Below are positions 1,346 to 43,324 of a stretch of 64,000 bases of DNA, one piece after another. Position 1 is the first letter of the stretch, and each line of letters opens with the position of its first letter. Below the pieces are notes generated by a model. That model was not told where the DNA came from. It searched no databases and worked only from the letters and a program-made list of their open reading frames with translations. The DNA is from an uncultured Alphaproteobacteria bacterium (GTDB lineage Bacteria > Pseudomonadota > Alphaproteobacteria > RF32 > CAG-239), in NCBI GenBank assembly GCA_944391405.1, contig CALXTN010000006.1, positions 13,885 through 77,884 of the forward strand. Reading direction: 5' to 3'. Made by a program: the position numbers and the translations under genes.

Positions 1346-4300
1346 TTACCATGGATCAGAATATTTTAAAGACGGATCATGTAAGCGTTTAAGATATCCT
1401 GCGTTAGTTCCTGAAGACTTATTTTTGGGATCACGATAAGAACCTAACTGATCAATTTGATCAACTTTATCCGCCCAATTGCTGTCTTGAAATTGAGATC
1501 TATCAAAATAGCAATAAACCGTAGCATGTCCTTCCAAAGTATTAGTCGGCACAGGAAACAAGTTCCAAACAAAGTTACCATGAAACATTGGATTTGGATT
1601 ATTTACATCATTATAGCCGTCCTCGTTATTATTAGAATACATACCTTCATCACCAGCACCGTCCCCTAAGTTGTAAAAATCTTTATCATAGATAAAACCT
1701 ATACGACCATGCCAACCTTCATCATATGGTTGGAGAGCTGTTTTGAGCCATGTATTCTGTTGGAAATAAAGAGGTTGAGCTACAATATATTTATCAGAAC
1801 CATCTTTACTGTAAGTATAGCTATATAAATTTTGTCCACTAGTTCCGCTAGAATTAGATTTTAAATAAGAGTCAGTTGCTGTACCATTTGCATCTGTATA
1901 ATAAGCCTTTAAGCCCAAATACCACCCTTCGGTTCTTGTCATTACTTGAGGTAAAAATGCACTATGAGACGTATCGGTAGTAAAAGTACCATTATAAATC
2001 AAGCTACTGACTTCTTCCATTCCCGGATAAATAATAGCATCATTCATATCGCCGCCACCTTGCAATGTCATTGCTGTCTCCAGAATAGATGCCTGACGCG
2101 ACGCAGGGTTAACAATCCACCTTTTAGATGGATGAGAATCATTCCCGCCAGCTTCACTATCATATGATGGTGCAAATTTATTAGCTTGAATAATTTCTCC
2201 AGCTTGTCCCATATTAAAGGAAATAGGAATAAGCGTCGCCATATTCATATATCCAGGAGGACAAAGTGCATAAGGAATACGTCCGACATAAGGATCCGCC
2301 CACGCCACATCCTCATTATGAGGTTCATAAACTTTAGTAGCACCCTGACATTGATCACCACAACTCCAAGCAATTCTCTTTGTTTTTGACCCCTCCACAA
2401 AGTCATTCGAAACATTATAAACACCTTTAAGGATAAAGTCTGGCAAGATATCGCTTAAACGAGCCCCACCACGAGTAGTTAACTTAATATCATGCATAAC
2501 TGAGGTATAGGCCGGATTAACCATATATTGATCATACATCGTTCCCCTATCCTCTTTGCCGGCAATTTCAGGAACAACTTCATTAGTATTAGAAACAAAT
2601 CTATTAGCTTTAATATATCCAAAGCCTTCATCCGCAGCAAATGTGGATGAAGAACCACCACTACTACCATAACTGTCTTCTAATTCAATAGCACCCTTAC
2701 GGATATAAATAGATGCATCACGAGTATCATCAATAGAGCTAGACCCCCCGCGAACATCTGTCGGATTAATTTTAAGCATTGCATAATAACCACCGGCAGA
2801 AGACCCCCCTGGAGCATAGTTACCATCCGTGTCTTTAGCCCAAACTTGAATATATTCAGGATCGATTTCAAACATGGCATGGTCATTATCAGCCGTTCCA
2901 ACGGCGTTAGAAGAGTTCGAAGCAATATGAATAACTTCATTACCGGTTACATGGAATGAACCGTTAACTTGAACATTAGCATCAGCTGTTTCGCTATCAG
3001 GATCCATATTAGGAGCAACCTTAAAGCGAACAGTGCTGGAATCATCTTCAACTTGAAAATCTACCCACCTTGTTCTAATTTTATCTGCATCTGCAAAGAA
3101 CTGAGCACCTTCATCTTCATCTGTTGAGCTAACATCTTTAGTTTTAATTGTAAATTTACCAGTTTTAGCATCAATTCTGTTAGTATAAGAAGAAGACCAA
3201 TGTCCACCAAATCTCATAGCTTCGCGCTGCACATCAACCACGCTGGAAACACTATCATTAAGAGTATAGAGATTAACTAAGGTAGAACCGACAACATTTG
3301 CCGAACCATCACCACCGACAGTATCAGCTAAGAAGTAGTTTTTAAGAGCACCTGTATTAGGATCACCGGCTCCAATACGAGAACTACCATCCTCAAAAGC
3401 AGCCCAAGCACCATCAGTATCATTAATCAATACCTTAGTAGAATCAGCTAAGAACATTAAATCGTTTTTACCTGTATTCATTTCGCCACGTTTATCATTT
3501 GTTCCGCCCTTAGCTTTGTTCCGAATAACAACCATATCATCATAAGCGTTCAACCATGCAGTCTGAGGTGCGTTAACAAATTGCGAATAAGATTCAAAAC
3601 CGGCGTGAAGTTCTTGCATACCGGCTTGTTTCAACCAAGCTCTGCGCGCCCACAACAGCTCATCAACCCAAGCCGAACCGGCAACACCCAAAGTAAATTC
3701 ATTACGAGTATATTTTCCGTCATCGGAAGCTGTAGAGCTCATATTTTTATTACCCATATAAGTTCTACCCATAATATCAGTAAACTTCGAAGCAATAGTT
3801 GTCAAATGCTCCAACTCAGTTCCTGATAAATCCGCATATTCATTTTTAATAGCATTATCAGCGGTCGGTTGAAAAGCAATTGAACCAGCTTCTTCTCCCG
3901 TGTAACCTTCTCCACTATAAACACGGATACCGCCACCACGTAACGAAACCTTATCTGTATCGGCATAAATCATATGGTTCGTATTATAAGCGGCCCCGAC
4001 TGAACCATTATCATCCACATCGTGCCCCACCGAGAAAACACGGTTATCAGTTCCCGAACTTGTAACATTAGCCAACAAGTGGACACGAGCACTATTATCA
4101 AATCCTTGCGCCATTAACCAACCGCCATCATGACCGGCATTAAGTTTTCCTCCCATATCGTTAATATATGTGAGCATATTTGTGGAAGCGGAAGACCCCC
4201 CGTTGATATAAACAGTACCGCCTTGACGGTTAATCTCTGTAATAGAGGAATCAGATTCGCGGTTGATATGTACTTCATTTGTCGAACCATTACGAAAAGC

Positions 4301-5608
4301 TTTAATAAGAGCCCCCTCACCACCAACGCCGGAAGATTCTCCGACTAAAAAGTCAACAATACTTGATGCACCGGCACGACGTTTGACTTGTACAAAATCA
4401 TCCATCATAGCCACACGTTCATTACCTTCTGCGTTTTCTGCACGAAGGATAACCACCTCTTCATCTCCTGTACCGGAACTGTTCATACGAGCGAATTGCA
4501 AAACATCCCATCCAGCAGAAGTACGTTCCAAATCATCATCGTATCCGTCTGTGTTTCTATTATAACCAGTACCGAGACTCTCTTCGCGGAACAATTGGAA
4601 GCTTTCGCTTAAGGCAGCCAAATTACCATAAATCCAAGCAGCACCGGTATTTCCCTCAACAGCTGGAGAATGGTCAGCCGTGTTAAGAGTACCATGATTA
4701 TCAATAGCAAAAGGCTTACCAATATATAAGTCAGCCACATTCGGATCACAAAAATCCCCCGTGGTAGATGAAATAGTTTCTGCCACATAAGCTCGGTTAC
4801 AGTTTGTGTTCATCGTTAATTTTTTAACGTTAAAGATTGAATAATAGTCATTGGCATATGTTGCATAATCCGTATCGTCAAACGGATGTCCTCCCATATA
4901 TAAATCAGTAACCATTGTATTATGATAATATGCAGAATCATCAGTTGCCGGTGACGGTGGCACACGATACAAATATTTAGCGCTGTCATCATAACTCATA
5001 GATATAGGCTCGCTTGATGTAATCATAATAGAATTTTCGGTTAAAGAAGAATCATCAATTTCCATATCTTCAATCATAGAGCTATTCAGATACCATGCAC
5101 CACCAGTACCCTTAGCCTCTCTATTATCAGTAATCACACCACCGTTAGCCCCAATCAAAGAAGCCATACGTGCGGCGCGTTTATTTCCAATATCAACAAT
5201 TTTCGGGTAAAGAACATAAGAAACCAATGTACTGTTATCACGTCGTACATAAACTTTTGGAGCATCATAGCCACGAATTTCATTTGGTGTAAAACCATAA
5301 GGCAAATAGCTGGAATAACCAACACGATAAGCTCCGGCTTGATCATCTTCAAAATCAATAACAATTGTATCATGATCTTCTCCGGACATAGAGCTCATCA
5401 ATCCGGAAAAGTTTTGTCGAATAAATGCATCCATAACGCTACCCATTGTACGAGCCTGTGAAGCAGCGTTAATATCTTGAATTTCCTGCAATCGTTCTGC
5501 GGATTTTTTATAAAGGGTCGGTGTAACCATTGCAATCAGACCCAGCATTGCGAGAGCTTCAATAAGAAGCGTACCGCGCTGTTCTGATGTTTTGAATAAT
5601 TTACTCAT
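1346..5608 (-). CDS. giant (1420 aa) surface or secreted protein with a type IV pilin-like (prepilin-type) N-terminal signal; adhesin-like, function unknown
   Basis: ORF track; ATG preceded by AAGGAG (complement of 5617-5622). N-terminus MSKLFKTSEQRG|TLLIEALAMLGLIAMVTPTLY has a short basic leader, Gly at -1, Glu at +5 and a hydrophobic helix. The rest is G/S/T/N/D-rich with no motif I recognise. Confidence 0.6.
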   Translation of the reverse strand: MSKLFKTSEQRGTLLIEALAMLGLIAMVTPTLYKKSAERLQEIQDINAASQARTMGSVMDAFIRQNFSGLMSSMSGEDHDTIVIDFEDDQAGAYRVGYSSYLPYGFTPNEIRGYDAPKVYVRRDNSTLVSYVLYPKIVDIGNKRAARMASLIGANGGVITDNREAKGTGGAWYLNSSMIEDMEIDDSSLTENSIMITSSEPISMSYDDSAKYLYRVPPSPATDDSAYYHNTMVTDLYMGGHPFDDTDYATYANDYYSIFNVKKLTMNTNCNRAYVAETISSTTGDFCDPNVADLYIGKPFAIDNHGTLNTADHSPAVEGNTGAAWIYGNLAALSESFQLFREESLGTGYNRNTDGYDDDLERTSAGWDVLQFARMNSSGTGDEEVVILRAENAEGNERVAMMDDFVQVKRRAGASSIVDFLVGESSGVGGEGALIKAFRNGSTNEVHINRESDSSITEINRQGGTVYINGGSSASTNMLTYINDMGGKLNAGHDGGWLMAQGFDNSARVHLLANVTSSGTDNRVFSVGHDVDDNGSVGAAYNTNHMIYADTDKVSLRGGGIRVYSGEGYTGEEAGSIAFQPTADNAIKNEYADLSGTELEHLTTIASKFTDIMGRTYMGNKNMSSTASDDGKYTRNEFTLGVAGSAWVDELLWARRAWLKQAGMQELHAGFESYSQFVNAPQTAWLNAYDDMVVIRNKAKGGTNDKRGEMNTGKNDLMFLADSTKVLINDTDGAWAAFEDGSSRIGAGDPNTGALKNYFLADTVGGDGSANVVGSTLVNLYTLNDSVSSVVDVQREAMRFGGHWSSSYTNRIDAKTGKFTIKTKDVSSTDEDEGAQFFADADKIRTRWVDFQVEDDSSTVRFKVAPNMDPDSETADANVQVNGSFHVTGNEVIHIASNSSNAVGTADNDHAMFEIDPEYIQVWAKDTDGNYAPGGSSAGGYYAMLKINPTDVRGGSSSIDDTRDASIYIRKGAIELEDSYGSSGGSSSTFAADEGFGYIKANRFVSNTNEVVPEIAGKEDRGTMYDQYMVNPAYTSVMHDIKLTTRGGARLSDILPDFILKGVYNVSNDFVEGSKTKRIAWSCGDQCQGATKVYEPHNEDVAWADPYVGRIPYALCPPGYMNMATLIPISFNMGQAGEIIQANKFAPSYDSEAGGNDSHPSKRWIVNPASRQASILETAMTLQGGGDMNDAIIYPGMEEVSSLIYNGTFTTDTSHSAFLPQVMTRTEGWYLGLKAYYTDANGTATDSYLKSNSSGTSGQNLYSYTYSKDGSDKYIVAQPLYFQQNTWLKTALQPYDEGWHGRIGFIYDKDFYNLGDGAGDEGMYSNNNEDGYNDVNNPNPMFHGNFVWNLFPVPTNTLEGHATVYCYFDRSQFQDSNWADKVDQIDQLGSYRDPKNKSSGTNAGYLKRLHDPSLKYSDPW

Positions 5609-5630
5609 AATTTAGTCTCCTTTACCCTAC

Positions 5631-6548
5631 TCAAAAATTCTGTATCTTAAATAAACAAGGACGATTAGCATCGCAAATTAAATTTCCATTTTTTCCTGTG
5701 AAAAAATTTTCTGTAAAAATCCAATCCGGTAGTATCCACTCACTTCTATTGCGGTTTTCAACAGGATAATTTAAGGAGTTTTGATGATCTTCGTTCCATT
5801 GATCTAAATCATTTGCATAAACCGGCAGAAAATTAATTTTTCCTCTAAAAACCCAAGCCTTATCAGAAGATCCTTCCGGTTTTGTCCAACGTATAACTCC
5901 AATATTATCGTAATAAAGTTTTTGATTAAGAGCGCGAACAAAGTCCAGCCCTACATCACCGGTAATACGATTAACCCATCTGGCATCCAGTCGTTTATAA
6001 GAAATGATATATTTAGCATCGTTACCACCAGAATTGCAACAAGACGCGGTAACATTACCATCTTCATCTTTTGTTGATTCACAATATTTACTATCGGTTT
6101 CATTAAGTGGCTTATCTAAACAAATAATTTTAGTAGCCATTTCTTCGCCATCATAAACTTGTCTGCCAAACATCAAATAATCACGACCATCAGGGTTAAG
6201 ATCTCCTTTATTGTTCTGAGAACGCAGATAAATAAGATGTTCATCCTGTCCTTCTTGTTTAATAAAGAGATGAATATCTTCATTATCTTGAACACTGCTA
6301 GAACTAAAATCCGCATAAAAAACATCGCCTGGCAAATTCCAAGGAATTTCAGAAGCATCATTGCTGACAAACTCACCATTTCCTATATCAACAAGAATTT
6401 TGCGGACAGCATTATGTTGAAGTGTGAATTTAAAAATAATGGCGGCAGCTTTCTTTCGAGCAACATCACGGTCATAATCCGGACGCGCTGAAAGATTATA
6501 TCCGTAAAGAGACGCCATAAACGTCGCAAGTAACATCAATAAGTACAT
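5631..6548 (-). CDS. hypothetical N-terminally membrane-anchored protein (305 aa), first gene of the pilin-like operon
   Basis: ORF track gives 5631..6680. I prefer ATG 6548 (MYLLMLLATFMASLYG...) because GGTGGAG precedes it and the 44 upstream codons look like AT-rich read-through. The stop lies 22 nt before the next start. Confidence 0.55.
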   Translation of the reverse strand: MYLLMLLATFMASLYGYNLSARPDYDRDVARKKAAAIIFKFTLQHNAVRKILVDIGNGEFVSNDASEIPWNLPGDVFYADFSSSSVQDNEDIHLFIKQEGQDEHLIYLRSQNNKGDLNPDGRDYLMFGRQVYDGEEMATKIICLDKPLNETDSKYCESTKDEDGNVTASCCNSGGNDAKYIISYKRLDARWVNRITGDVGLDFVRALNQKLYYDNIGVIRWTKPEGSSDKAWVFRGKINFLPVYANDLDQWNEDHQNSLNYPVENRNRSEWILPDWIFTENFFTGKNGNLICDANRPCLFKIQNF

Positions 6549-6762
6549 AAAATCAGCTCCACCATATATACATATATGCAAAATAGTACCATAAATTTTC
6601 GAAAAAATCAATAAAAAAGCATATTTTCCCCACATTTGTAACAAAAATGTCACAAAAAAGAAATAAGCGCAAAAAAACATTGCATTATTTTGAAAAAAAT
6701 CTTGTCAATACAAAGAGACAACAGTAAATTAACTCTATAAATATGAAAGGAGCCCTAAGAAG

Positions 6763-7167
6763 ATGAACGATACATCTCTAAGTCTTGCGGAAACCACCAT
6801 AAAAATGCTAGGAGACCGCTGGAAAGTTCAAATTATAGAAAGTTTAATGGACGGGACGAAACGCTTTGGTGAATTAAAAAAGGACTTAGGTAATATTACA
6901 CAAAAAGTATTAACTTCAAACTTGCGTATGTTGGAAGAAAATGGTATATTAAAACGTAAAGTGTATGCTCAAATCCCCCCACGGGTAGATTACACCCTAA
7001 CCAATCTTGGCTACAACTTGAAACCTGTCATAGATTCAATGGTGGCTTGGGCTGTTGAATATCGCGGTTCTTTGGTTCAAGAATTTAACGATATGAAAGA
7101 AAAAAGTAAAGCAAGAATAGAAAACAAAATCAATAAAATAAAAGAGAATATTCAAGTAAAAAATTAA
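6763..7167 (+). CDS. HxlR-family winged-helix transcriptional regulator
   Basis: RWKVQIIESLMDGTKRFGELKKDLGNITQKVLTSNLRMLEENGILKRKVYAQIPPRVDYTLTNLG is a typical HxlR-type HTH. The gene is divergent from the pilin-like operon. Confidence 0.85.
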   Translation: MNDTSLSLAETTIKMLGDRWKVQIIESLMDGTKRFGELKKDLGNITQKVLTSNLRMLEENGILKRKVYAQIPPRVDYTLTNLGYNLKPVIDSMVAWAVEYRGSLVQEFNDMKEKSKARIENKINKIKENIQVKN

Positions 7168-7185
7168 GTTTAAAAGCTCATTAAA

Positions 7186-7220
7186 AAGCGCCTCACTAAT
7201 CATGAAGCGCTTAATTTTTT
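7186..7220 (+). terminator. intrinsic terminator between the convergent HxlR-family regulator and tsaC genes
   Basis: AAGCGC-N15-GCGCTT hairpin followed by AATTTTTT. Confidence 0.5.
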
Positions 7221-7240
7221 ATGTCAACAGTAAAAATGTA

Positions 7241-8185
7241 TTAGCGAGCCGCACGTTTAATTCGGTCGTTAATGGCGAGCCCTAATCCTTCAAACGGAAT
7301 AGGAGCCATAGCCAAACGAGAGAAGTTTGGATTTTTATCTGCCTCACGCATATAAGCAAACAAATGAGCCGCAGCCTCACGTAAATCCCCTTGGGGGCTC
7401 AAATTCATTTCCGCCCAATCATATTTCGGACCAAATCCGATAAAAAGCTCCCCTTCAAGACGTTCAGTAGCGTTAATACGCAATTTTTTAGAAGGCGCAT
7501 AGTGTTTCAAGAGCTGCCCCGGAGAGGTTGGCCGATTAGGATTGCCGTCAGAAATAGCTACGGGCTCGTTAAGTGCTTCTTCTAGCTCTTCTTTAGTAAT
7601 CCCCCCTGCTCGTAACAAGACGGCTTGCGGCGTAGTCAAATCCAAAATAGTCGATTCAACACCAACTTCACAAGCCCCCCCATCCAAAATCATATCGACA
7701 TTATCGCCCAAACTCTCATAAACAGCTTCGGCGGTAGTCGGAGAAATAGTCTGTGAGCGATTTGCGGAAGGTGCGGCAATTGGCACACCTGATTTACGGA
7801 TAAGTTCTAAGGCGACAGGATGCTTTGGACAACGCACGGTAATAGTCTTAAGCCCTGCGCAAACCAAATCGAGCGCCGGATTTTCATCTAATCGCGGAAG
7901 AACGAAAGTCAGAGGTCCAGGCCAAAACTTTTTAGCCAAGAACAAAGCTCTTTCATCCGCTTTAGCATATTCTGCCAATTGTGCCGGTTCAGCGATATGC
8001 GAAATCAGCGGATTAAACGATGGACGCCCTTTAGCAGCAAAAATTCCAGCCACAGCGTGTGCGTCATAAACGCTGGCGCCTAACCCATAAACCGTTTCCG
8101 TTGGAAATGCGACGAGTTTACCGCCCTTGATAAGTTCCGCCGCCTGACATATATTAGCCTCATCAGCCTTAAAAATTCCGCTCAT
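7241..8185 (-). CDS. tsaC: threonylcarbamoyl-AMP synthase (Sua5/YwlC long form)
   Basis: 314 aa; YrdC-domain motif VAFPTETVYGLG plus a C-terminal Sua5-type domain. Confidence 0.9.
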   Translation of the reverse strand: MSGIFKADEANICQAAELIKGGKLVAFPTETVYGLGASVYDAHAVAGIFAAKGRPSFNPLISHIAEPAQLAEYAKADERALFLAKKFWPGPLTFVLPRLDENPALDLVCAGLKTITVRCPKHPVALELIRKSGVPIAAPSANRSQTISPTTAEAVYESLGDNVDMILDGGACEVGVESTILDLTTPQAVLLRAGGITKEELEEALNEPVAISDGNPNRPTSPGQLLKHYAPSKKLRINATERLEGELFIGFGPKYDWAEMNLSPQGDLREAAAHLFAYMREADKNPNFSRLAMAPIPFEGLGLAINDRIKRAAR

Positions 8186-8331
8186 AACATCCTCACAAAT
8201 AAAAAAAATCTCTGCGATAACAACATTTTTCAGACATTAGCACCATAAAAAGCAAAGTCAAGCCCCTTATTTTAAGACTTTATTCACAAATACGGAGGCA
8301 AAATAACCAAGATTAAACAAAGGAGAAAACA

Positions 8332-9813
8332 ATGACAGAAATTACATTTAACCGCTCGGCTAAAGAAACCGAAGTCAAAGTTCTGTTGGCAACCAAAGAG
8401 GAAGCCCTAAACTACGGTATCACCGGCGGCATTATTGATCGTTCAACTTTTAATCGCCTGAAAGATTTAATCGCTAAAGCCGATGAAGGTAGAGAAAAGA
8501 AAGAAGACATCTTAGTCTTAAATAATGGCAAAGACGTGGTTGTTTTGTTACGAATTTCAAATACAGCCACACCTGTGATGTTACAAACTTTAGGTGGCAG
8601 AGTGTATAACCAGATAAAAAATTACAAATCTGCGACAATTTTTGCAAGACACTTGCCGAAAACCGACTTTGAAGCCAAAGACATCGCTTCTAATATGGGG
8701 TTAGGTGTGGAGTTGTCATCATATAGCTTTGATAAATACCGCACGACAAAGAAAGCAGATGAATTTCCGAGATTGGAAACATTAAATTTCGTAGCCAAAG
8801 ACAAGTTGGATAAGAAAGATTATGAAAAGAGCGCCGCTCTGGCCAATGCCGTCAGATATGCGCGCGATTTGACCAATGAACCGTCCAACGAGTTAACGCC
8901 GGAAGTTTATGCGAAAGACATCAAGCGTTTGGAACATTTGGGCTTAAAGGTAACCTTAAAAGACAAAGATGAGTTGAAAAAAGAAGGTTTCAATATGTTA
9001 TTGTCCGTGGCTCAAGGTTCTGCCAACAGTCCGTATGTGGCTATTTTAGAATATAACGGCAACAAGAGCAAAAAAGGCTATGACATTGCGTTGGTCGGTA
9101 AAGGCGTAACCTTTGATTCAGGTGGCATATCCATTAAACCGGCAGCCGGCATGTGGGATATGAAACAAGACATGGCGGGCTCTGCTGTGGTTGTATCCAG
9201 TTTGAAAGCTGCCGCTCAACAGAAATTGAAGTTAAATATTGTGGGTATTGTGGGCTTGGTAGAAAATATGCCGTCAGGAACAGCCACCCGCCCCGGAGAT
9301 ATTGTAACCTCCCTATCGGGCAAAACCGTTGAAATATTGAATACGGATGCGGAAGGAAGATTGGTTCTGGGCGATTGCTTGACTTACGTTGAAAGAGAAT
9401 ATAAGCCGGAACGCATTGTAGATTTGGCAACATTAACCGGTGCGATTGTGGTTGCGTTGGGTAGTGAAATGGCCGGCTTATTCAGTAATGATGACTGTTT
9501 GTCAGAATTATTGAGTATCTCGGGCGAACAATCCGGTGAAGAATTATGGCGTTTCCCGATGACGGACGGTTATCGTAAATTGATAAAGTCCGACATGGCT
9601 GATGTTAAGAATATATCAGACGGCAGAGCCGCCGGTTCCATTACCGCCGCATGCTTCTTGGAAGAGTTTTTGCCAAACAAAACTCCATGGGCGCACTTGG
9701 ATATTGCCGGTATGGATATGTTTGGTAAACCCAAACCATTATATCCTAAGGGAGCCAGTGGTTTCGGTGTTCGCTTAATCAATAAGTTGTTACAAAACTT
9801 AGAGAAAAAATAA
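8332..9813 (+). CDS. pepA: leucyl aminopeptidase (M17)
   Basis: 493 aa; motifs VGKGVTFDSGG and NTDAEGRLVLGD. Confidence 0.9.
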   Translation: MTEITFNRSAKETEVKVLLATKEEALNYGITGGIIDRSTFNRLKDLIAKADEGREKKEDILVLNNGKDVVVLLRISNTATPVMLQTLGGRVYNQIKNYKSATIFARHLPKTDFEAKDIASNMGLGVELSSYSFDKYRTTKKADEFPRLETLNFVAKDKLDKKDYEKSAALANAVRYARDLTNEPSNELTPEVYAKDIKRLEHLGLKVTLKDKDELKKEGFNMLLSVAQGSANSPYVAILEYNGNKSKKGYDIALVGKGVTFDSGGISIKPAAGMWDMKQDMAGSAVVVSSLKAAAQQKLKLNIVGIVGLVENMPSGTATRPGDIVTSLSGKTVEILNTDAEGRLVLGDCLTYVEREYKPERIVDLATLTGAIVVALGSEMAGLFSNDDCLSELLSISGEQSGEELWRFPMTDGYRKLIKSDMADVKNISDGRAAGSITAACFLEEFLPNKTPWAHLDIAGMDMFGKPKPLYPKGASGFGVRLINKLLQNLEKK

Positions 9814-9839
9814 AAAAGCAACATAAGATAGAAAAAGAG

Positions 9840-9868
9840 AGCGTTTCTGAGAAGGAACGCTTTTCTTA
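9840..9868 (+). terminator. intrinsic terminator after pepA
   Basis: AGCGTT-N10-AACGCT followed by TTTCTTATT. Confidence 0.55.
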
Positions 9869-9921
9869 TTGCCAAATAAGTAAAATTGTGTTAAGATACC
9901 CCAAACGATAAGGAGGAACAG

Positions 9922-10731
9922 ATGTTAGAAGATATAGATTTAATATATAATGGCGAAGAACGTCCCAGTAAGGCTTACTTTACGCCAATAAGCAATACAA
10001 AGATGTCAAAACCCATTGGAGGATTATGGACATCTCCATTAGATAAGAGCACAGGAAAAAGTGCATGGCAAGATTGGTGTGAAAGAGAGGATTTTCATCC
10101 TGAGCGCTACCAAACGCAATGGCATATTGTTCCGGATAAAGATGCCAAAACATTAACTGTAGATGAAAACTTAGATAATTTACAACCATATTTGATTCCG
10201 GATGGCTATTACGGAAACATCATAGATTTCGAAAAGTTATCAAAAGATTATGATGTGGTAAGATTTCCGAAAGAAGTTGTCCGCAAAAGCTATTACGAAT
10301 TAAGTTCGTATGATATTGACAGTACAATATTCCTAACGCCCAAATTTACGGCAATGAATCACCAAGAATACAAAAGATCTAAAGCAGATGAGGCATTTGC
10401 CAAAGAGTTTCAGAAACGACAAGCCTCAAAAGATATATTGACAGAATTAAAAGAAGAGGAGAGAAAAATAGAAGACCTCATGTACGCTTCTCTGCAACCG
10501 CAAGAAAATACGCCTCAAGAAACTCCGGTAGAAATAGAACAACGTGTTCAAGTTGCATCACAACCACAAGAAAATATAGCCAGAGAAGCTCCGACAGAAA
10601 TAAAAGAAAGTGAACATGTAGCTCAGCAAACGCAAGAGAATATGATCCAAGAAACATCGCCAAAAAAGAAAAACAATCTTTTTAACAGATTGGTCAAACA
10701 AAAGTTATGGAACAAAATGTTCTCTCGCTAA
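9922..10731 (+). CDS. hypothetical protein with C-terminal QPQEN tandem repeats
   Basis: ORF track; ATG with AAGGAGG upstream; no recognised domain. Confidence 0.6.
   Translation: MLEDIDLIYNGEERPSKAYFTPISNTKMSKPIGGLWTSPLDKSTGKSAWQDWCEREDFHPERYQTQWHIVPDKDAKTLTVDENLDNLQPYLIPDGYYGNIIDFEKLSKDYDVVRFPKEVVRKSYYELSSYDIDSTIFLTPKFTAMNHQEYKRSKADEAFAKEFQKRQASKDILTELKEEERKIEDLMYASLQPQENTPQETPVEIEQRVQVASQPQENIAREAPTEIKESEHVAQQTQENMIQETSPKKKNNLFNRLVKQKLWNKMFSR
10495..10660 (+). repeat. in-frame tandem repeat, 66-nt period (about 2.5 copies)
   Basis: Units start at 10495 (CAACCGCAAGAAAAT), 10561 (CAACCACAAGAAAAT) and 10627 (CAAACGCAAGAGAAT). They encode QPQENTPQETPVEIEQRVQVAS / QPQENIAREAPTEIKESEHVAQ / QTQENMIQETSP. 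Confidence 0.8.
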
Positions 10732-10845
10732 AAGATAACAGGTACAATACTAAAGACCACATATTTTTTATTTTCTCCTCTTTACAAATACAAACAATCT
10801 GCTATACTCCGCGGCAATAAAACAATCAGAGAGAAGGAAAATAAA

Positions 10846-24672: not shown

Positions 24673-26748
24673 ATGAACGACGATTTGCAACGCTTTATAG
24701 AGGAATTACGAGCTCGTGTTTCGATAGTGGATGTAGTCGGCGCAAAAGTAAAATTGACCAAAAAAGGTCGAGAATATCAGGGATTGTGCCCTTTTCATAA
24801 TGAAAAGACACCCTCGTTTACCGTCAATGAAAGCAAAGGGTTTTATCATTGTTTTGGTTGCGGAGCGCATGGCGACATCATCAAGTTTGAAATGGAGGCC
24901 AACGGACTTCCGTTTATAGATGCGTTGCAAAAATTGTCACATCAAGCCGGTCTGCAAATGCCTCAGTTAACGGCAAAAGATAAAAAAGAGGAAGAAGAGC
25001 GCAAATCATTATACGATATAATGGAGTGTGCTTGTAGCTTTTTTGAAAAATCTTTAAGAATGCCCGAAGGCTCGGAAGGCTTAAAGTACTTTACTGAAAA
25101 GCGCGGCTTATCAAAAGATACAATCCAAAAATTCCGTTTAGGCTTCGCACCTAATAACAATGCTTTAATGGCACATCTCAAAGCGGAAGGCATTAATGAA
25201 AAAGAAATGAAAGAACTGGGGTTGATTGCTATTCCGGAAGACACATCTCGCCGCCCGCATGATTTTTTCCGTAATCGCGTCATGATACCAATAACCAATA
25301 AACAAGGTCGTATTATTGCATTTGGCGGTCGTGTAATGGAAAAGATTGAGCCTAAATACTTAAACTCCCCCGATACGCCGATTTTTAATAAACGCCGTAA
25401 TCTCTATAACTTAGATAAAGCCCGTGAAGTTGCTTATAAAGAAAAGAACCTGATTATCTGCGAAGGCTATATGGATGTCATCGCACTGGATAGATACGGA
25501 TTTGGCTATGCGGTAGCACCATTGGGAACAGCTCTGACGGAAGAACAGATTATGGAGGCGTGGAAAGTCTGTTCCGAACCGATATTGTGTCTGGATGGTG
25601 ATAACCCTGGGGTAAAAGCCGCCATGCGTGCCGTGGATAGAGTTTTACCGATATTAAAAGCCGGTTATTCATTAAAATTCCTATTCTTGCCGGACAATCA
25701 AGACCCAGATGAATATTTACAAGCACATGGTCGAGAAAGCTTCGGAGCGTTAATGAAAAAGACCAAACCTCTGATAGATATTTTGTGGCAAAAATATACC
25801 GAAAATGAAGATAGTTCCACACCGGAAAAGAAAGCCTTAATAGAAAAGACATTATTGGCGGAAGTCGCCAAAATTACAGATGCGACAGTCAGAAGTTACT
25901 ATGCGCAAGAAATTCGTAATCGCATTTATATGGCTTTCAAACAAACAGCATGGCAGAAAAGAGAATATAATGCGCCACACCCTCGTGCATATTTTTCTCA
26001 TCCACAACCTATGCCAGCAGCACCTGCTCCCTATAATCCGCCACTGCAAAACCAAGAGCCTCCAGCTTACTTGGAGAATATTCCGCTGGGCGAACCATTG
26101 CCGATACCACATCCTTATGAAGCACCGGCACCGCGCCCACATACCCCACAAACACCGACATATTCACGTCCAAACACTGGTTATAACAATAATCGCTACA
26201 ATAACAGTCGTCGCAATAATTATAATCCCCCTCGCCCGCAAATTAATCATGTCATCAGCAATGCGCCTGAAACGTTGCGCCAAAGTGCTGAGGGAGAAAA
26301 TGATAAGAACATCCGCTTCATGATTGCTGCCGAACTAATTTATCCGGAATTGATAGACGATTATGAGGAACAATTATTCAGTAGCGATATAAAAAATCCG
26401 AAACTAAAAGAATTGCTGACCACTATTGCTGATATTTATCACGAAACCGAAGAACCACTATCCTCGGAAGAACTACTTGAGAAATTATCCTCTACTCCGC
26501 AAAATCAGCAAATCAAAGAATTATGGGAATTGGATATGTTACAAAAACGTCCACCGTTTATCAATGACTTACGCCACAATATAGACAAAGTACTTTTAGA
26601 AGACAAATTGCGTAATTTGGAAGATGAAATCAAAAATCTGACCAACGAGATATGCCAAAACTTTACAGAAGAAGCCTACTCCCGCTTAAGTGGCTTAAAA
26701 AAAGAGCGAGATGAAATTTTATCCCATGCCGCTGAACCCGAGATATAA
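24673..26748 (+). CDS. dnaG: DNA primase, with an unusual Pro/Asn/Tyr-rich linker
   Basis: Zinc finger CPFHNEKTPSFTVNESKGFYHCFGCGAHGD and TOPRIM EGYMDV...DGDNPG. The low-complexity stretch is encoded at about 25960-26260. Confidence 0.95.
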   Translation: MNDDLQRFIEELRARVSIVDVVGAKVKLTKKGREYQGLCPFHNEKTPSFTVNESKGFYHCFGCGAHGDIIKFEMEANGLPFIDALQKLSHQAGLQMPQLTAKDKKEEEERKSLYDIMECACSFFEKSLRMPEGSEGLKYFTEKRGLSKDTIQKFRLGFAPNNNALMAHLKAEGINEKEMKELGLIAIPEDTSRRPHDFFRNRVMIPITNKQGRIIAFGGRVMEKIEPKYLNSPDTPIFNKRRNLYNLDKAREVAYKEKNLIICEGYMDVIALDRYGFGYAVAPLGTALTEEQIMEAWKVCSEPILCLDGDNPGVKAAMRAVDRVLPILKAGYSLKFLFLPDNQDPDEYLQAHGRESFGALMKKTKPLIDILWQKYTENEDSSTPEKKALIEKTLLAEVAKITDATVRSYYAQEIRNRIYMAFKQTAWQKREYNAPHPRAYFSHPQPMPAAPAPYNPPLQNQEPPAYLENIPLGEPLPIPHPYEAPAPRPHTPQTPTYSRPNTGYNNNRYNNSRRNNYNPPRPQINHVISNAPETLRQSAEGENDKNIRFMIAAELIYPELIDDYEEQLFSSDIKNPKLKELLTTIADIYHETEEPLSSEELLEKLSSTPQNQQIKELWELDMLQKRPPFINDLRHNIDKVLLEDKLRNLEDEIKNLTNEICQNFTEEAYSRLSGLKKERDEILSHAAEPEI

Positions 26749-26778
26749 AAAAAATATCAAATTCGATTATTTATTTTC

Positions 26779-26807
26779 TTGACAATATAAATATAAAGAG
26801 CTAATAG
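26779..26807 (+). promoter_or_regulatory. weak candidate sigma-70 promoter ahead of the hairpin array
   Basis: TTGACA-N17-TAATAG; the -10 element lacks the final T. Confidence 0.25.
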
Positions 26808-26850
26808 AAGAACCACTGATTCTATCATTTAGATATTATTTTTTTCTTCA

Positions 26851-27270
26851 TCTGTCGTTCATATACAGACAGACTTTCATTTCTCACATGTGAATGCCAG
26901 AAATGAAATAAACAAGACTTCAAGCAAGAATATATCTTGCAAGCCATGATTAAAAAGGATTGTTGGTTTGTGAAAATAGGCAATCCTAAATTATTAGGAA
27001 ATCTGTAAAACGGATATTTTTAAGAAATATCCCAACCTGTCTGCCCCTTTGTGAAAAGCGGCAGATTTTTCAAGAGAAAGCTAAAATAAAATAAATTAAA
27101 TTAAAATACATCCTTTGTTAGCTTTATGTCTTGAGCTAAAGTTGTATACTTAGATGTTTTTCTTCTTACACAGAAAACATCGAAGAACTGCTCCTTTGTG
27201 AAAAGTAGCAATTTCTTTCCAAATTTTTTAATAAAGCGTCTGGTTTGAGAAAATCGGACGCTTATTTTTT
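26851..27270 (+). ncRNA. candidate highly structured RNA (or dnaG 3' UTR) carrying 4-5 hairpins with a conserved UUUGUGAAAA-type loop
   Basis: Conserved-loop hairpins at 26876-26907, 26957-26986, 27040-27065, 27188-27211 and 27234-27263. Other hairpins at 26851-26873, 26924-26940, 27012-27032 and 27153-27181. T-runs follow hairpins only on the plus strand. No convincing ORF. Confidence 0.4.
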
Positions 27271-27335
27271 CTAAAAAAACTCTCAAAATTTAAAAATCTT
27301 CACAAATACTACAAGGCTAAAAAGCATAAACAACA

Positions 27336-29870
27336 TTATGATTTTTTACGAAAGAATTTAATTTTTTGAGCAAAAGCTTTAATTTTGTTAACTGAAGAAG
27401 AATTATTTAAATCCGTAGCTTCAACTTTTTGCTTAATAGCGGCAGCTTGAGCTTCAGCCTTTTGAATAGCCTTTGAAGCGATTTGTTTAATGTGTTCAAA
27501 ATGTTTATCCACTTCTTTAGAATTAATATTTAAAATATTGTTTAAAATTATTTTTTGAGAAGAAGAAACATTATCAACATTACCTTCATTCATTTCCCAC
27601 TCCTCAAATTTAGACACGCTTTCTAAACTTTGTGTTACAGATGTTGCCGGTGTTTCAACTTCAGTTATAGTACCTATTGCTGTTTCATTATCAATAGTAG
27701 AATCATTTTTCTCATTTTGCGCAGGATCATATTCAATTACTTCTTCTGTATTGGAAACATCAGAATCATTCAAAATATCAGAAACATTAGCTATATCTAC
27801 AATTTCTTCTGTATTCTCAACAGCATCAATTTTATCGCCAGTCTTCAAAGCTTGATGAGAATCATCTTGTGGTGTTGTACATGAAACAGAATTTAAATTT
27901 ATTTCTGAGGAATTTGCAGAAAAACTTTCAACTTCATCATCAGCATTTTTCTTATTTTGAGATACATCATTATCCCAAGCACTAAGCAGCGCTGCATCCA
28001 AAGGTTCAGATAATTTTGAGGATATTTCAATAACATCTATATTATCATTATTCTCTTGATTATGAGAAACAACTTCTTCTTGAACTTTTTTTTGCGTATA
28101 GCTACGAAGAATATCAGCAGAAGAAGGAATACTACCAGCAGGTCTTGCAAAAGAATATGTAGGTAATTCAGGAGGATTATCTTGAATTTTCTGAGGAATA
28201 ACAATTTCATCAGTAGTTTTATAGACATTTTTTAACAAAGAAGTAAATTGTTTTCCATCATTACTCTCTATCTGTGTTTCAGTTTTATCAGTAATAGATA
28301 TATCAAATTGTCTAGGAGAACTTTGTTTATTTAAATTACCCCTCTCTACTTTTAAAGGTTGAATATTGTTTTGAGCAATTAGTTCAGTATTTTCATCCGC
28401 ATATTTTGCCAAATTTAGCATAGATGTCCCAACCATAAACTGTTCTAATTTATGTTTATCCATCGTTAACGGATTATCTTCCTTCGTCCCAATAATAATC
28501 CCATTATCTGTTTCAAATACACCTAATTTTAATTGCTGCGCCAAAAAACACATTTCTTGGGTTAAGTTATCATCAAGTATCATGATTGTATTAGAAAACA
28601 ATATAAACTGCTGCACCAATTCGTTTTTATCCAAGAACCAATTTCCTAATACTAAATACTTAAGAAGAGCTGCAGCTTGTTGAACACATCCCTCTTCAAT
28701 AAACACACGAACAGCAGTTAAGGTTCTTCTTGCCGTATATTCAACAAAGAAATCATTTTCGCCATGAAAATTCTGCAAATTAATACAAATAATATCTAAA
28801 ATAAACGCTTCAGATCCATTAACCTTCGGAAGCAAACGATGTAAAAAACCAATAAGTTCGGTAGCTTTTCCCTTTTTAGCCAATTCAAGCAATATCTGCA
28901 CAGCGGACTTAATTTGATTAAGTTCAACTAACATCATAGCAAAAACAACACCTTTAGGCTCAACATCTTTTTGAATATGTTTCAAGCAACGTTCCGTAAT
29001 AGGACGTATTTTTCCAAATTCATGTTTAATAAATTTAGCCTCTGTTTCCTCATAAAACCCGAATTCATCTTCAAATTTAGCTGCAAAATCTTCAATTTCC
29101 GCATTTCTAGCCAATAAAGGTTCTGCTTCAAGTTCAGATAAACCATCGAAAGCTTCATCAGCCATAAGTTTCGCCAAAACAGCATCATCAAGCCCGATAG
29201 ATTTAGGAGAAAACCCATCATTTACGGCATCAAAAAGATATGAAAAGAGATAATCTTTTTCCCATTCTGCTAATTTACGGTGAGTATAAGCTGCGACATC
29301 ACAAAGTTTACGAAGCACATCAGTTTTTTCATAAATAGCAGCCACTGCGTCTGTCGTAACTCCGCAAGCCGCCCCCATACCTCTAAATCTTTCCAAATAA
29401 GCTTTTAGTTTATCAGTTAACTCAGCTTCATCAAGTTGTTCCATTAATTTTTTATAATCAACACAAAAAGGAGACACTTGCTGAGCCAAAGAAGCATCAG
29501 TTTTAACTAATTTTTCTAAAACAGTTTTACGAAATTTAACACTTGCTTGAAAATTATCCAACCCCTTCCAAGCTTTTAAGCGTCCATCTGTAAACTGTTC
29601 TGCCATATTTCGATTATAATCAGCAAGAAATCCCTTATCAAAAGCACTCACAACACCAAACTGCACCAAAGCATCCCAAATTTTATGTCGCACGGCAACA
29701 GACGTACCTTTAACTCCGGAAACACCAATCAACCCCCATAAATAAGAAAAATTAACCTTTTGAAAAAGATCATCATTTTCGGGAGCTCCCAATTTTTTCA
29801 TAAACCGTTCAACGACGATTTCCTTACCTAAACCGACCAAATTTTGCAGTTCAGCATCATTCCACAACAT
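27336..29870 (-). CDS. hypothetical 844-aa protein: helical N-terminal ~470 aa plus an N/D/S/E-rich low-complexity C-terminal half
   Basis: ORF track; no signal peptide and no motif I recognise. Confidence 0.6.
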   Translation of the reverse strand: MLWNDAELQNLVGLGKEIVVERFMKKLGAPENDDLFQKVNFSYLWGLIGVSGVKGTSVAVRHKIWDALVQFGVVSAFDKGFLADYNRNMAEQFTDGRLKAWKGLDNFQASVKFRKTVLEKLVKTDASLAQQVSPFCVDYKKLMEQLDEAELTDKLKAYLERFRGMGAACGVTTDAVAAIYEKTDVLRKLCDVAAYTHRKLAEWEKDYLFSYLFDAVNDGFSPKSIGLDDAVLAKLMADEAFDGLSELEAEPLLARNAEIEDFAAKFEDEFGFYEETEAKFIKHEFGKIRPITERCLKHIQKDVEPKGVVFAMMLVELNQIKSAVQILLELAKKGKATELIGFLHRLLPKVNGSEAFILDIICINLQNFHGENDFFVEYTARRTLTAVRVFIEEGCVQQAAALLKYLVLGNWFLDKNELVQQFILFSNTIMILDDNLTQEMCFLAQQLKLGVFETDNGIIIGTKEDNPLTMDKHKLEQFMVGTSMLNLAKYADENTELIAQNNIQPLKVERGNLNKQSSPRQFDISITDKTETQIESNDGKQFTSLLKNVYKTTDEIVIPQKIQDNPPELPTYSFARPAGSIPSSADILRSYTQKKVQEEVVSHNQENNDNIDVIEISSKLSEPLDAALLSAWDNDVSQNKKNADDEVESFSANSSEINLNSVSCTTPQDDSHQALKTGDKIDAVENTEEIVDIANVSDILNDSDVSNTEEVIEYDPAQNEKNDSTIDNETAIGTITEVETPATSVTQSLESVSKFEEWEMNEGNVDNVSSSQKIILNNILNINSKEVDKHFEHIKQIASKAIQKAEAQAAAIKQKVEATDLNNSSSVNKIKAFAQKIKFFRKKS

Positions 29871-30098: not shown

Positions 30099-32159
30099 AT
30101 GTCAGAAACAGATAATGAAGATTACAGAACATCCGATGCACCATTGTTAGATACATTTGGCGGCGCACTAAAAAAACTAATCGCCAAAGGAAAAGAACAA
30201 GGCTACATCACTATAGAAGAACTCAATCAGGCTTTACCATCTGAAAAAGAGACTTCAGACCAAATAGAAGATATCATGGCAGCGATTTCCGATATGGAAA
30301 TCAGCATAATTTCAGCTGATGAAACAGAAGATTTTGAAGACGATAATGGCGAAGATGAACATCTGGAAGAAGATGAAATCATAGATGACGAAGACGGCGT
30401 AGGCAATTTAGATGGTAAAGAGCTTATGCGCTCGGATGATCCGGTTCGTATGTACCTAAAAGAAATGGGGACAGTTGAATTATTGTCAAGAGAAGGAGAA
30501 ATCGCAATCGCTAAAAGAATAGAAGCCGGCAAAACAGTTATGATTGGCGGACTTTGCGAAAATCCAATGACATTAAAAGCAATCTCCAAATGGCGCGATG
30601 AATTGGTCGAAGGAACTATGCAATTGCGCAATATAATAGATTTGGAAATGATGTATGGTGTTGATTCTGAAGCAATCGTCTATGATGATGAAACTCCACA
30701 AGTTGATGATTTAGAACAGGTTACCAAAGATCTAGAAGGCAAAAATCTGGATGAAATTGATGATGATTTAGAAAATGATATAGAATTTGATGATACTGTA
30801 GATGATGAACCGGAAGAAGACGTATCCGAAAATGAGGATTTAGACGGTGAAGGCGAAGGCGAATTAGATGAAGATGAAAGCGGTCACAGTACCACTTCAA
30901 TCAGCGCCATGGAAACCGCTCTCTTTGAACCAGTACTGGATATTTTAAACAAAATCTCCAGCTATTACGATGAATTAAGTCGAATTCAAAGTCAACGTAT
31001 GAAAGCAATCTTAGCTGGAAGAAAAGCCCAACCTGCGTTGGAAAAGAAATATACCAATATCAAAAAAGAATTGATTGAGTTAATGAGTTCTATTCACTTA
31101 AACTCAGCACGTGTTGAGGAATTGGTAGAACAATTAAACGAATTAAACCGCCGCTTGATGGGGGTTGAAGGTAAATTAATGCGTTTGGCCTTAAATTGCC
31201 GCGTTAAGAGAGAAGATTTCTTGGAAGCATATCAACGCTCCGAATTAGACCCACACTGGGTGGAAAAAATGGCTGAAAAGAAAGACAAACATTGGCAAAA
31301 CTTCATCAAAGATAACCTTGAAGAAATTACCGAGTTGCGTAACTCTTTAGCAGAAATGAGTAAAGAATGTGGTTTGCCGATTTCAGAATATCGTAAAATG
31401 GTAGATACCATTAAACGTGGCGAAAGAGAAGCAGACAGAGCTAAAAAAGAGATGATTGAAGCAAACTTAAGATTAGTTATCTCAATCTCTAAAAAATACA
31501 CCAACCGCGGTATGCAATTCTTAGATTTAATTCAAGAAGGCAACATCGGTTTGATGAAAGCCGTAGATAAATTTGAATACCGCAGAGGCTATAAATTCTC
31601 AACCTATGCAACCTGGTGGATACGTCAGGCAATCACACGTTCCATTGCCGACCAAGCACGCACAATCCGTATTCCAGTTCATATGATTGAGACCATCAAT
31701 AAATTGGTAAGAACCTCACGCCAAATGTCTTTGGAAATGGGCAGAGAACCAATACCAGAGGAATTGGCAAAGAGATTATCTATGCCGGTTGATAAAATCC
31801 GCAAGGTAATGAAAATAGCCAAAGAACCGGTCAGCCTTGAAGCTCCGGTCGGAGATGAAGAAGATTCATCATTGGGTGATTTTATTGCTGATGAAAACGC
31901 ATTACAACCGATTGATTCCGCAATTCATGCCAACTTAAAAGAAACATGCACCCGCATTTTATCATCCCTTACCCCAAGAGAAGAAAGAGTATTGCGTATG
32001 CGTTTCGGTATCGGTATGAATACGGACCACACATTGGAAGAAGTTGGACAGCAATTTAATGTCACCAGAGAGCGTATTCGTCAAATTGAGGCAAAGGCAT
32101 TAAGAAAATTGAAGCACCCGAGCCGCAGTAAGAAATTACGTTCTTTCTTAGATCAATAA
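30099..32159 (+). CDS. rpoD: RNA polymerase primary sigma factor
   Basis: 686 aa with an acidic region 1.1 and spacer. Region 2 [27 protein letters not shown]; region 4.2 [27 protein letters not shown]. Confidence 0.97.
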
Positions 32160-36749: not shown

Positions 36750-36768
36750 CGCTGCATAAAAAAACACA

Positions 36769-36806
36769 GAAAGTCTCTGCCCTCACTGGCAAAGACTTTC
36801 TTTTTT
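36769..36806 (+). terminator. intrinsic terminator
   Basis: GAAAGTCT(c)TGCC-N6-GGCA(a)AGACTTTC followed by T6. Confidence 0.7.
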
Positions 36807-43249: not shown

Positions 43250-43324
43250 TGGTGATCCCAACGGGATTTGAACCCATGTTACCGCCGTGAAAGGGCGATG
43301 TCCTAACCACTAGACGATGGGACC
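43250..43324 (-). tRNA. tRNA-Glu (anticodon UUC), CCA encoded
   Basis: I folded it by hand: GGTCCCA tc GTCT agtggtta GGAC a TCGCC cTTTCac GGCGG taac ATGGG ttcaaat CCCGT TGGGATC a CCA. Total 75 nt. Confidence 0.95.

Follow-up and report, generated by a model that had tools for sequence, protein, structure and literature searches.

The closest described counterparts of the RNA considered here are the CsrB/CsrC/RsmX/RsmY/RsmZ sponges, which have their own promoters and Rho-independent terminators and repeat one brief apical motif, A(N)GGA in an open loop, on hairpins whose stems vary in sequence; the copy number of the motif varies by species, and paralogous genes exist. In the Alphaproteobacteria, the CcsR1-4/'cuckoo' and ar14-type small RNAs (sRNAs) come in tandem arrays of variable copy number and share one conserved C-rich loop motif (CCUCCUCCC), which pairs with ribosome-binding sites. 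The boxB hairpin of lambdoid nut sites carries a pentaloop on a G-C stem and has a GNRA-like apex that is bound by N proteins, and the ToxI-type type III antitoxins consist of near-identical direct repeats of 34-45 nucleotides (nt), downstream of which a co-oriented toxin gene is found. Here we describe an array of hairpins downstream of the primase gene dnaG in a 64-kb stretch of DNA from an uncultured Alphaproteobacterium (contig CALXTN010000006.1; hereafter the window, whose numbering is used unless another locus is named). Positions 26779-27271 are predicted from the sequence to be a plus-strand noncoding RNA gene of ~455 nt that is independently transcribed from its own promoter, and the RNA represents a new family within the repeated-motif hairpin RNAs.

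Each of the Csr/Rsm features just named recurs in the array or in its relatives: a promoter and an intrinsic terminator of its own, variable stems under a common apical motif, a motif number that differs between species, and paralogous genes. Unlike the Csr/Rsm motif, however, the one found here is a GNGA tetraloop seated on U-A pairs, and the same module also occurs singly in phages. Because the loops contain no GGA (0 of 63 caps, in line with what the initial annotation of this DNA had remarked) and the Csr/Rsm models of Rfam give no match on 26600-27450 even at E <= 10, we place the RNA outside the Csr/Rsm family in spite of its CsrB-like design.

Tandem homologous alphaproteobacterial genes with a shared loop motif and species-variable copy number are reminiscent of cuckoo/CcsR, but the loop here is 4 nt long with a free second base, no DUF1127 gene lies upstream, the CCUCCUCCC motif is absent in the region, and there is no Rfam match to the cuckoo/CcsR and ar14 RNAs. 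With boxB the module has in common a short hairpin with a GNRA-like apex, a phage context and a transcript position near terminators; it differs from boxB in that its loop is a true tetraloop, its stem is longer and the G.U pair plus mismatch is fixed, and no N-like gene was identified. The module also bears a tentative likeness to boxA/boxB, to the S15 G.U/G-C motif and to NusA-binding RNA. Like type III toxin-antitoxin arrays, the locus combines tandem structured RNA units behind one promoter, variable copy number and links to phages, but unlike ToxI its units are neither of one sequence nor of one length (the copies share 63-80% identity at irregular spacing), and the gene that comes next lies on the opposite strand, in convergent orientation. 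Finally, the type-C hairpin of the array and most phage copies resemble intrinsic terminators in being stable hairpins followed by a U-tract, and depart from ordinary ones in that a 15-nt apex is shared across unrelated genomes and the internal modules lack U-tracts.

The family is absent from Rfam. Searches of the window, the orthologous arrays and the phage loci against Rfam 15 returned nothing relevant at gathering or permissive thresholds; the sole gathering-level match in the window is a tRNA (43253-43324), and matches to GibS and Yfr19 (24-26 bits against gathering thresholds of 70-115) were rejected as terminator look-alikes. As the initial annotation had judged by eye, the region does not look like tmRNA, RNase P, 6S or SRP RNA: for these and for tRNA it has no Rfam match beyond chance level, the RNase P match being to a Plasmodium model (15.4 bits versus a gathering threshold of 100, E = 8.5). 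BLAST of the region against plasmids and GenBank phages gave no match, and the element was not found described in the literature when this was searched for the motif string or for the context, the matches to Rex, CodY and a cGAS-activating phage RNA being coincidental strings. An anticodon-loop mimic, suggested by the likeness of UUGUGAA to the tRNA-His loop, was rejected as well, since a loop of 7 nt would not be in register with the stem and covariation is seen at the apical pairs, and none of the likenesses to ANTAR, K-turn, T-loop, CRISPR-repeat or DnaA/CRP-box elements fits the fixed positions.

The hairpin array and its shared cap

The nine hairpins listed in the initial annotation all fold when taken separately, at the coordinates given for them and with z-scores of -2.4 to -6.9, and the fold of the entire intergenic region has z = -6.3. 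What had been described as a common 14-16-nt loop is not a loop of that size, as RNAfold pairs its UUU with its AAA and leaves a GNGA tetraloop on three U-A pairs above a single mismatch or wobble. Five hairpins share the resulting cap, which consists of the GNGA tetraloop, three mostly U-A pairs and then a fixed non-Watson-Crick feature; this is a G.U pair with an R.A mismatch in type A and a C-G pair with a Y.C mismatch in type B. The fifth of them, hp2, had been proposed to carry the same core and does belong to the class (Table 1). Across caps the loop reads GUGA 46 times, GCGA 10 times, GAGA 7 times and never GGGA. Its second position may be U, C or A, a freedom that GNRA-type folds share.

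A covariance model built from GNGA-capped hairpins of this kind, the E-values of which are rough, finds five matches of 24.5-39.6 bits, all within 26876-27264 on the plus strand, and the capped module nowhere else in the window, where the next best match scores 16.5 bits. The string TTTGWGAAAA has four matches in the window, all at 26967-27253 on the plus strand and within 290 nt; as about two would be expected in a window of this size, the signal lies in the clustering and not in the count. The four stems that carry this string (H1-H4) had been called unrelated in sequence but uniformly paired. All do pair, but some are paralogous: H2 shares 80% identity with H3 over 30 nt, and 63% with the more distant H4. 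Two ordinary terminator-like hairpins with GNGA loops (GAGA, GUGA) and G-C-rich closing pairs also occur in the window at 9835-9866 (plus strand) and at 36768-36801, and these score only 11-14 bits with the hairpin model.

The predicted transcript would begin near 26814, downstream of a sigma-70-type promoter that a consensus scan overlooked because its -10 hexamer ends in G. The leader is the best-conserved unpaired segment of the RNA (consensus in relatives AAUCACUAAAUUAUMACUUAAAUAUUAUU). It is followed by hp1, a shortened orthologue of the GUCUGCC...GCAGAC hairpin of relatives, and, further on, by H1, whose lower stem of 9 bp is topped in turn by a G.A mismatch, a G.U pair, the UUU/AAA pairs and the GUGA loop, the same apex as in phage contigs. 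The stem of hpX changes its sequence in relatives yet pairs (GAGAUG/CAUCUC and others), and H2 has a conserved C.C mismatch (27046/27059). U-tracts follow hairpins on the plus strand only, as noted in the initial annotation. H4 with its U-tract is the intrinsic terminator of the gene; it folds at -18 kcal/mol (z = -6.4), and type C is kept at unit ends in relatives. The combination of hairpin and U-tract is complete at 27234-27263, with U6, and partial at H2, which has U5 directly after it (27066-27070); it is lacking at hp2 and H1, and H3 has merely an interrupted U-rich stretch after it. H2 with its U5 is possibly a partial terminator, and a shorter form of ~255 nt, ending at H2, is likewise possible. 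The 3' third of the gene (27071-27271), which holds H3 and H4, has the appearance of a second unit reduced to a remnant, with no recognizable promoter.

There is no conserved open reading frame (ORF) in the gene, as small ATG-started frames vary in length and frame across relatives. A small ORF starting from the ATG in the hp1 loop was considered and rejected: its frames are 5-27 codons long and vary among relatives, it has no Shine-Dalgarno sequence, and it is absent in the window. The linker after hairpin A is a near-invariant palindromic AAGAUCUA in most units (alignment A5, columns 48-55), with GAAAUCUG at 27003-27009 as its counterpart in the window, and could be a pairing or dimerization site.

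Table 1. Features of the predicted RNA gene and its neighbors in the window
Feature	Position	Strand	Description and evidence
Sigma-70-type promoter	26779-26807	+	-35 TTGACA at 26779-26784, 17-nt spacer, -10-like TAATAG at 26802-26807
5' leader	26814-26850	+	A/U-rich, predicted single-stranded; alignments
hp1	26851-26873	+	UCUGUC/GACAGA; fold and alignment
hp2	26876-26907	+	cap CAU-GUGA-AUG, tetraloop 26890-26893; covariance model, 24.5 bits
hp3	26924-26940	+	GCAAGA/UCUUGC; without GNGA cap
H1 (type A)	26956-26987	+	GUGA loop 26970-26973; covariance model, 34.0 bits
hpX	27012-27032	+	GGAUAUUU/AAAUAUCC; fold
H2 (type B)	27039-27071	+	GUGA loop 27051-27054; covariance model, 39.6 bits
Filler hairpin	27153-27181	+	GAUGUUUU/AAAACAUC; fold
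H3 (type B-like)	27184-27216	+	H2 paralogue, GUGA loop 27198-27201; covariance model, 34.2 bits
H4 (type C)	27234-27271	+	13-bp perfect stem, GAGA loop 27247-27250, then AUUUUUU; 35.0 bits
dnaG	24673-26748	+	full set of primase domains
844-aa ORF, convergent	27336-29870	-	no Pfam family
rpoD	30099-32159		beyond the 844-aa ORF

The array is housed in a gap of 587 nt between dnaG and a convergent ORF of 844 amino acids (aa), in a window of 37% G+C. Its host is an uncultured, low-GC gut Alphaproteobacterium. A search with the DnaG protein (one genome per species) returned relatives that are all metagenome-assembled 'uncultured Alphaproteobacteria' sampled from human, mouse, pig and ruminant gut, with DnaG identities of 64-96%, and the gene order yqeY-dnaG-gap-large ORF-rpoD is common to the window and these relatives. 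The only NCBIfam match of the 844-aa ORF is far below cutoff (18.9 bits versus 840), and its PDB match has E = 0.36; the N-terminal half (~480 aa) appears structured, and the tail is long, acidic and of low complexity. A large ORF (631-971 aa) is kept between dnaG and rpoD in relatives, including those without the RNA. We rejected the 844-aa ORF as the partner of the RNA, given that it has no family assignment and that the ORF persists where the RNA is missing.

Covariation and the family at the dnaG locus

Orthologous regions show the stem covariation around a conserved loop motif by which the initial annotation had proposed to judge its candidate: compensatory changes are found, and the cap is kept. 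In an unbiased test that took all distinct plus-strand TTGNGAA sites in the gaps and ignored pairing, 60 of 71 sites have at least seven of nine flanking pairs, against 5 of 233 elsewhere in 395 kb on both strands. A second set of 62 distinct hairpins was selected for pairing, so that the paired fraction, 91% of stem cells versus 65% after partner shuffling, is partly built in and the covariation is the informative part; here, 162 double-sided changes are seen where 42 are expected, a value reached by none of 500 shuffles, and shifting the partner by one column lowers pairing to ~55%. Among hairpins A and B of 11 units, compensatory changes occur at eight pairs, which none of 500 shuffles matched. 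Variation is all but absent from the three apical U-A pairs (kept in 11, 11 and 10-11 of 11), and it is wholly absent from two fixed features, the fourth pair of type A, a G.U, and the Y.C mismatch at the fifth position of type B (11 of 11 each). RNAalifold, applied independently to eight orthologues, yields hp1, hp2, A and B. Rare swaps of U-A to C-G in distant relatives, in the metagenomic contig L152 and in phages argue that the apical pairs form a helix. The structure is under selection, and the cap under stronger selection. One stem pair reads U.G in 20 of the 62 hairpins. Read from the opposite strand, G.U pairs of this sort would turn into C.A mismatches; together with promoters and U-tracts that all lie on the plus strand, they point to the plus strand as the RNA strand, in agreement with the plus-sense structured noncoding RNA that had been proposed.

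Alignment of the gaps reveals a repeating unit made of an invariant TTGACA, a 17-nt unconserved spacer, a TA-started hexamer, the conserved A/U-rich leader and then the hairpins hp1, hp2, hp3, A, hpX and B, a segment of variable sequence, and C with its U-tract; hp2, A, B and C bear caps. The same TTGACA-17 nt-TA arrangement heads each of ~20 units in relatives, which bears out comparatively the promoter that had been noticed at 26779-26807. A promoter, a string of GNGA-capped hairpins, a type-C terminator and a site after dnaG occur together in the window and likewise in L001-L005, L013, L023, L024, L028-L030, L033 and L034. The number of units per relative is one (L001, L005, L029, L033), two (L003, L004, L030) or three (L013, L024), and the caps number 5 in the window and up to ~12 in relatives. 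Even among L001, L028, L029 and L030, with DnaG proteins 95-97% identical to that of the window, the unit number varies: L001 and L029 have one unit, L030 has two, and L028 has a hybrid of the 5' part of unit 1 and the 3' part of unit 2. Recombination between hairpins thus appears to be ongoing. The array described in the initial annotation is real, but what had been seen as one fixed set of hairpins is a gene, tandem in relatives, whose copy number changes at strain level.

The family extends to an abundant human-gut species (L034; DnaG identity 71%, 52% G+C) in which promoter and leader are retained along with four hairpins capped by UUUGYGAAAA, and whose DnaG protein cluster is present on hundreds of contigs. 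Distant relatives (L009, L011, L016, L008) have shorter units with GUUGNGAAAC-type caps, and in the rearranged L006 a capped module sits in the gap adjoining rpoD. Both the gap and the RNA are absent from L010, L012 and L014, the spacer between dnaG and the ORF being 4-48 nt in relatives without the RNA. Within 20 related loci totaling 246 kb, covariance-model matches are confined to the orthologous gap (in L006, the gap by rpoD). The possibility that the motif is a dispersed repeat, which would have undone the initial proposal, therefore finds no support at this level, with no REP/BIME-like dispersal in the window and the 20 related loci, but type A does recur outside the family, as it is common in gut phages.

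Several further sequences were noted in these gaps. A GUUUAACAAUUUA-like string, which we take to resemble the antitermination boxA of the E. coli rrn operons, lies between hp2 and hp3 in L002, L004, L005 and L033 and is also found in L024 (10113-10128); this boxA-like element, a UUUAACAA string near hp2/hp3 in some relatives, is shared with nut sites and is degenerate in the window (AUAAACAAG, 26908-26918). In L034, about four GC-rich direct repeats of ~60 nt (CCTGCCCGTTCG[CT]RCAGACTTTCCG..TTATTTCC.CTGCCCCGG) stand between dnaG and the promoter of the noncoding RNA (~10200-10440). The array of L024 is preceded by a 2.4-kb gene-free stretch that contains a CTT/CCT-rich simple repeat and two direct-repeat pairs of ~120 nt (8780-9500), and the rearranged locus L007 has tandem ATCGCGAGTCATTGCGAGCGCACCTTTTTT copies at 8200-8290, where the capped-hairpin RNA would be.

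Type-A hairpins in gut phages

A pattern scan for phage association led to the 179-kb viral contig L164 (IMGVR_UViG_3300028048_000050), where five type-A hairpins are set within a cluster of tRNA genes; in four cases only 3-4 nt separate the hairpin from the tRNA-like 5' end that follows it. That cluster (5480-10810, minus strand) includes a tRNA with a CUA anticodon, resembling an amber suppressor, and tRNA-like genes with long insertions. Counts from the viral and metagenome scans are lower bounds. The type-A apex is GGUUUGNGAAAAUAG, and in its 15-nt form GGTTTGTGAAAATAG it occurs at 120 or more viral loci, with at least 34 more for the GAGA and GCGA versions; among the apex matches listed, 78 of 123 have at least seven of eight further stem pairs, on 38 different covarying stems. 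The type-A hairpin is present in more than 100 gut viral contigs. As the apex of these matches was fixed by the search pattern, independent evidence comes only from the stems, from the bias in strand and from extra matches that the pattern did not force. The hairpins that the model found unforced keep the GUGA loop, the G.U pair and the R.A mismatch, and their apical pairs covary (GCUU-GUGA-AAGU, GUCU-GUGA-AGAU).

Phage copies are intergenic in 34 of 38 cases, lie 15-100 nt past ORF ends, and share the strand of the upstream ORF in 34 of 36 cases and that of the downstream ORF in 30 of 37. Most have a U-tract after the hairpin and are thus terminator-like. A called tRNA lies within 150 nt of 7 of the 38, and several others stand immediately before sequences that resemble tRNA or tmRNA but were not called. 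We rejected the idea of a promoter within the phage hairpins, as the TA-rich hexamers before tRNAs are too near the tRNA 5' end. One group of the hairpin-bearing contigs consists of relatives of Bacteroides phage C3_41T2LP, the host of which is B. uniformis. Since its complete 74-kb genome has two matches only (at about 71569-71600 and 72633-72664 of the record), the element is a low-copy one and does not serve these phages as their general terminator. The second of the two lies inside a 48-codon coding sequence annotated as 'major outer capsid protein' (L292 32560-32706, corresponding to OR296439.1 72560-72706), a label that is probably wrong. On another gut viral contig, a DUF2693-FD RNA (Rfam RF02926, 59.9 bits; L227 1794-1844) was seen ~1.3 kb from a capped hairpin.

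A third setting is the metagenomic contig L152 (JAEEGL013378468.1; 34% G+C), where 13 or more type-A-like modules follow one another at a spacing of 69-98 nt (~2900-4650, minus strand), each then continuing into UUUUUCYAAGAC, and four tRNA genes come after the array. The 3' ends of the L152 tRNAs are followed by CCAACACAA-like strings. In a metagenome scan with a three-motif pattern, 7 of 120 loci among the matches listed are real, and the others are mostly chance.

Candidate functions of the capped RNA

By analogy with CsrB, we favor the view that the RNA is multivalent and that its hairpin caps are docked by a conserved trans-acting factor, and we put the probability of this at roughly 0.4. 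The cap would be a structure-specific docking site, read by its shape and by a few bases. The partner, most likely a transcription, termination or RNA-processing protein, would be shared by different gut bacteria, and the chromosomal RNA would present several caps to it at once, acting much as CsrB/RsmZ do, as a sponge or a scaffold. The cap appears to have been held constant while the stems drifted and the module number changed by recombination. Its constancy from 37% to 52% G+C, the free second loop base, the fluid number of modules and the reuse of the module by unrelated phages together make a docking site the most likely role.

A number of observations pull away from a multivalent docking RNA. 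The phage module may be foremost a specialized terminator or an RNA 3'-end element that has no titration role; a part in termination, 3'-end protection or processing is plausible, and such an activity may be the primary one from which the array derives. No neighbor protein family is shared across the 38 phage contexts, and type B was not found as a hairpin among the viral matches listed. Since some close relatives (L010, L012, L014) lack the intergenic region altogether, the RNA must also be dispensable, and the paired fraction of the 62 selected hairpins counts for less than its face value.

The most serious competitor, although we consider it unlikely, is that the family consists of base-pairing regulatory sRNAs, with the leader (26814-26850) or the AAGAUCUA linker as the seed for target mRNAs and the capped hairpins as modules for stability, for processing or of terminator origin; CcsR1-4/cuckoo, AbcR1/2 and LhrC would be the analogues. 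Tandem, separately promoted paralogous genes are typical of such families, and in type-1 units the leader hardly varies over ~28 nt. A cap whose second loop base is free makes a poor seed, which leaves the leader as the candidate. A scan for leader duplexes with the 5' regions of 54 window genes, a comparison of low power, did not rise above shuffled-leader controls, however, and the leaders of type-2 units and of distant relatives differ substantially where the caps do not. Base pairing would also leave the invariant cap and its recurrence in phages unexplained.

We find it rather improbable that the hairpins act only in cis on transcription or RNA ends, as specialized intrinsic terminators or as 3'-end or processing hairpins. 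On such an account, the array would be a set of leaky terminators and stabilizers, serving either to shield dnaG and the convergent ORF from each other or to shape the 3' untranslated region of dnaG. The stretch from the dnaG stop codon to the array does lack a terminator, H2 is followed by its U5, and the phage copies have the U-tracts (shared with type C) and the positions shortly past ORF ends that a cis element would have. But each unit has its own conserved promoter, the internal type-A and hp2 modules are without U-tracts, and a plain terminator needs neither an invariant cap nor a fixed G.U and mismatch. Two copies in the 74-kb genome of a Bacteroides phage do not make a general terminator type, and relatives with a 4-48-nt spacer between dnaG and the ORF manage without the array.

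A variant that takes in both settings, and which we regard as slightly more doubtful again, is that the capped hairpin is a portable tag for one factor on nascent or 3'-terminal RNA. Phages would use one to a few copies of it for termination control or for the release of tRNAs or late transcripts, and the chromosomal multi-copy RNAs, with the array of L152 among the multi-copy cases, would be decoys that titrate the factor. Depending on who owns the factor, the tag would define either a new global post-transcriptional regulon or an RNA-decoy defense against tag-dependent phages.

The last two accounts, both less likely, concern the RNA or DNA in itself. That the GNGA tetraloops dock in helix minor grooves, intra- or intermolecularly, and give a compact or multimeric particle, like the recently imaged ornate RNAs, seems very improbable. 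GUGA-type loops prefer CU:AG steps in tetraloop-receptor work, such steps are present in several conserved stems (UCUG/CAGA in hp1 and B, ACUAU/AUAGU in type A), five GNRA-type loops fall within one 455-nt RNA, and the palindromic AGAUCU linker is conserved; yet the architecture is that of beads on a string, in which RNAalifold recovers no long-range helices or multi-way junctions, the module number varies among strains with a freedom that a precise tertiary fold would not tolerate, and single modules stand alone in phages. We give least credence to the absence of any function of its own, as a selfish or slippage-driven hairpin repeat, or to a function at the DNA level, as a single-strand initiation or primase site or a protein-binding motif akin to a TGTGA half-site: copy number does shift by recombination, the locus adjoins dnaG, and TTGTGA in the motif string resembles CRP/FNR/Rex-type half-sites in the literature, but the element is kept from 37% to 52% GC with compensatory stem changes and an invariant cap, is strictly strand-specific in its G.U pairs, promoters and terminators, has no partner half-site at operator spacing, and is not near primase genes in phages.

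At a minimum, the analysis adds a structurally supported noncoding RNA family that can be deposited in Rfam and used for the annotation of metagenomes. If caps are indeed docked by a shared factor, they would represent a new RNA-protein (or RNA-RNA) recognition code in uncultured gut Alphaproteobacteria and many gut phages, with a reach that would include a species present in hundreds of human-gut assemblies and phages akin to a culturable Bacteroides phage. Bacterial multi-site 'sponge' RNAs, of which very few are listed, would then comprise a second class of motif, and a function would be assigned to an element that now goes unannotated between phage genes and before phage tRNA genes.

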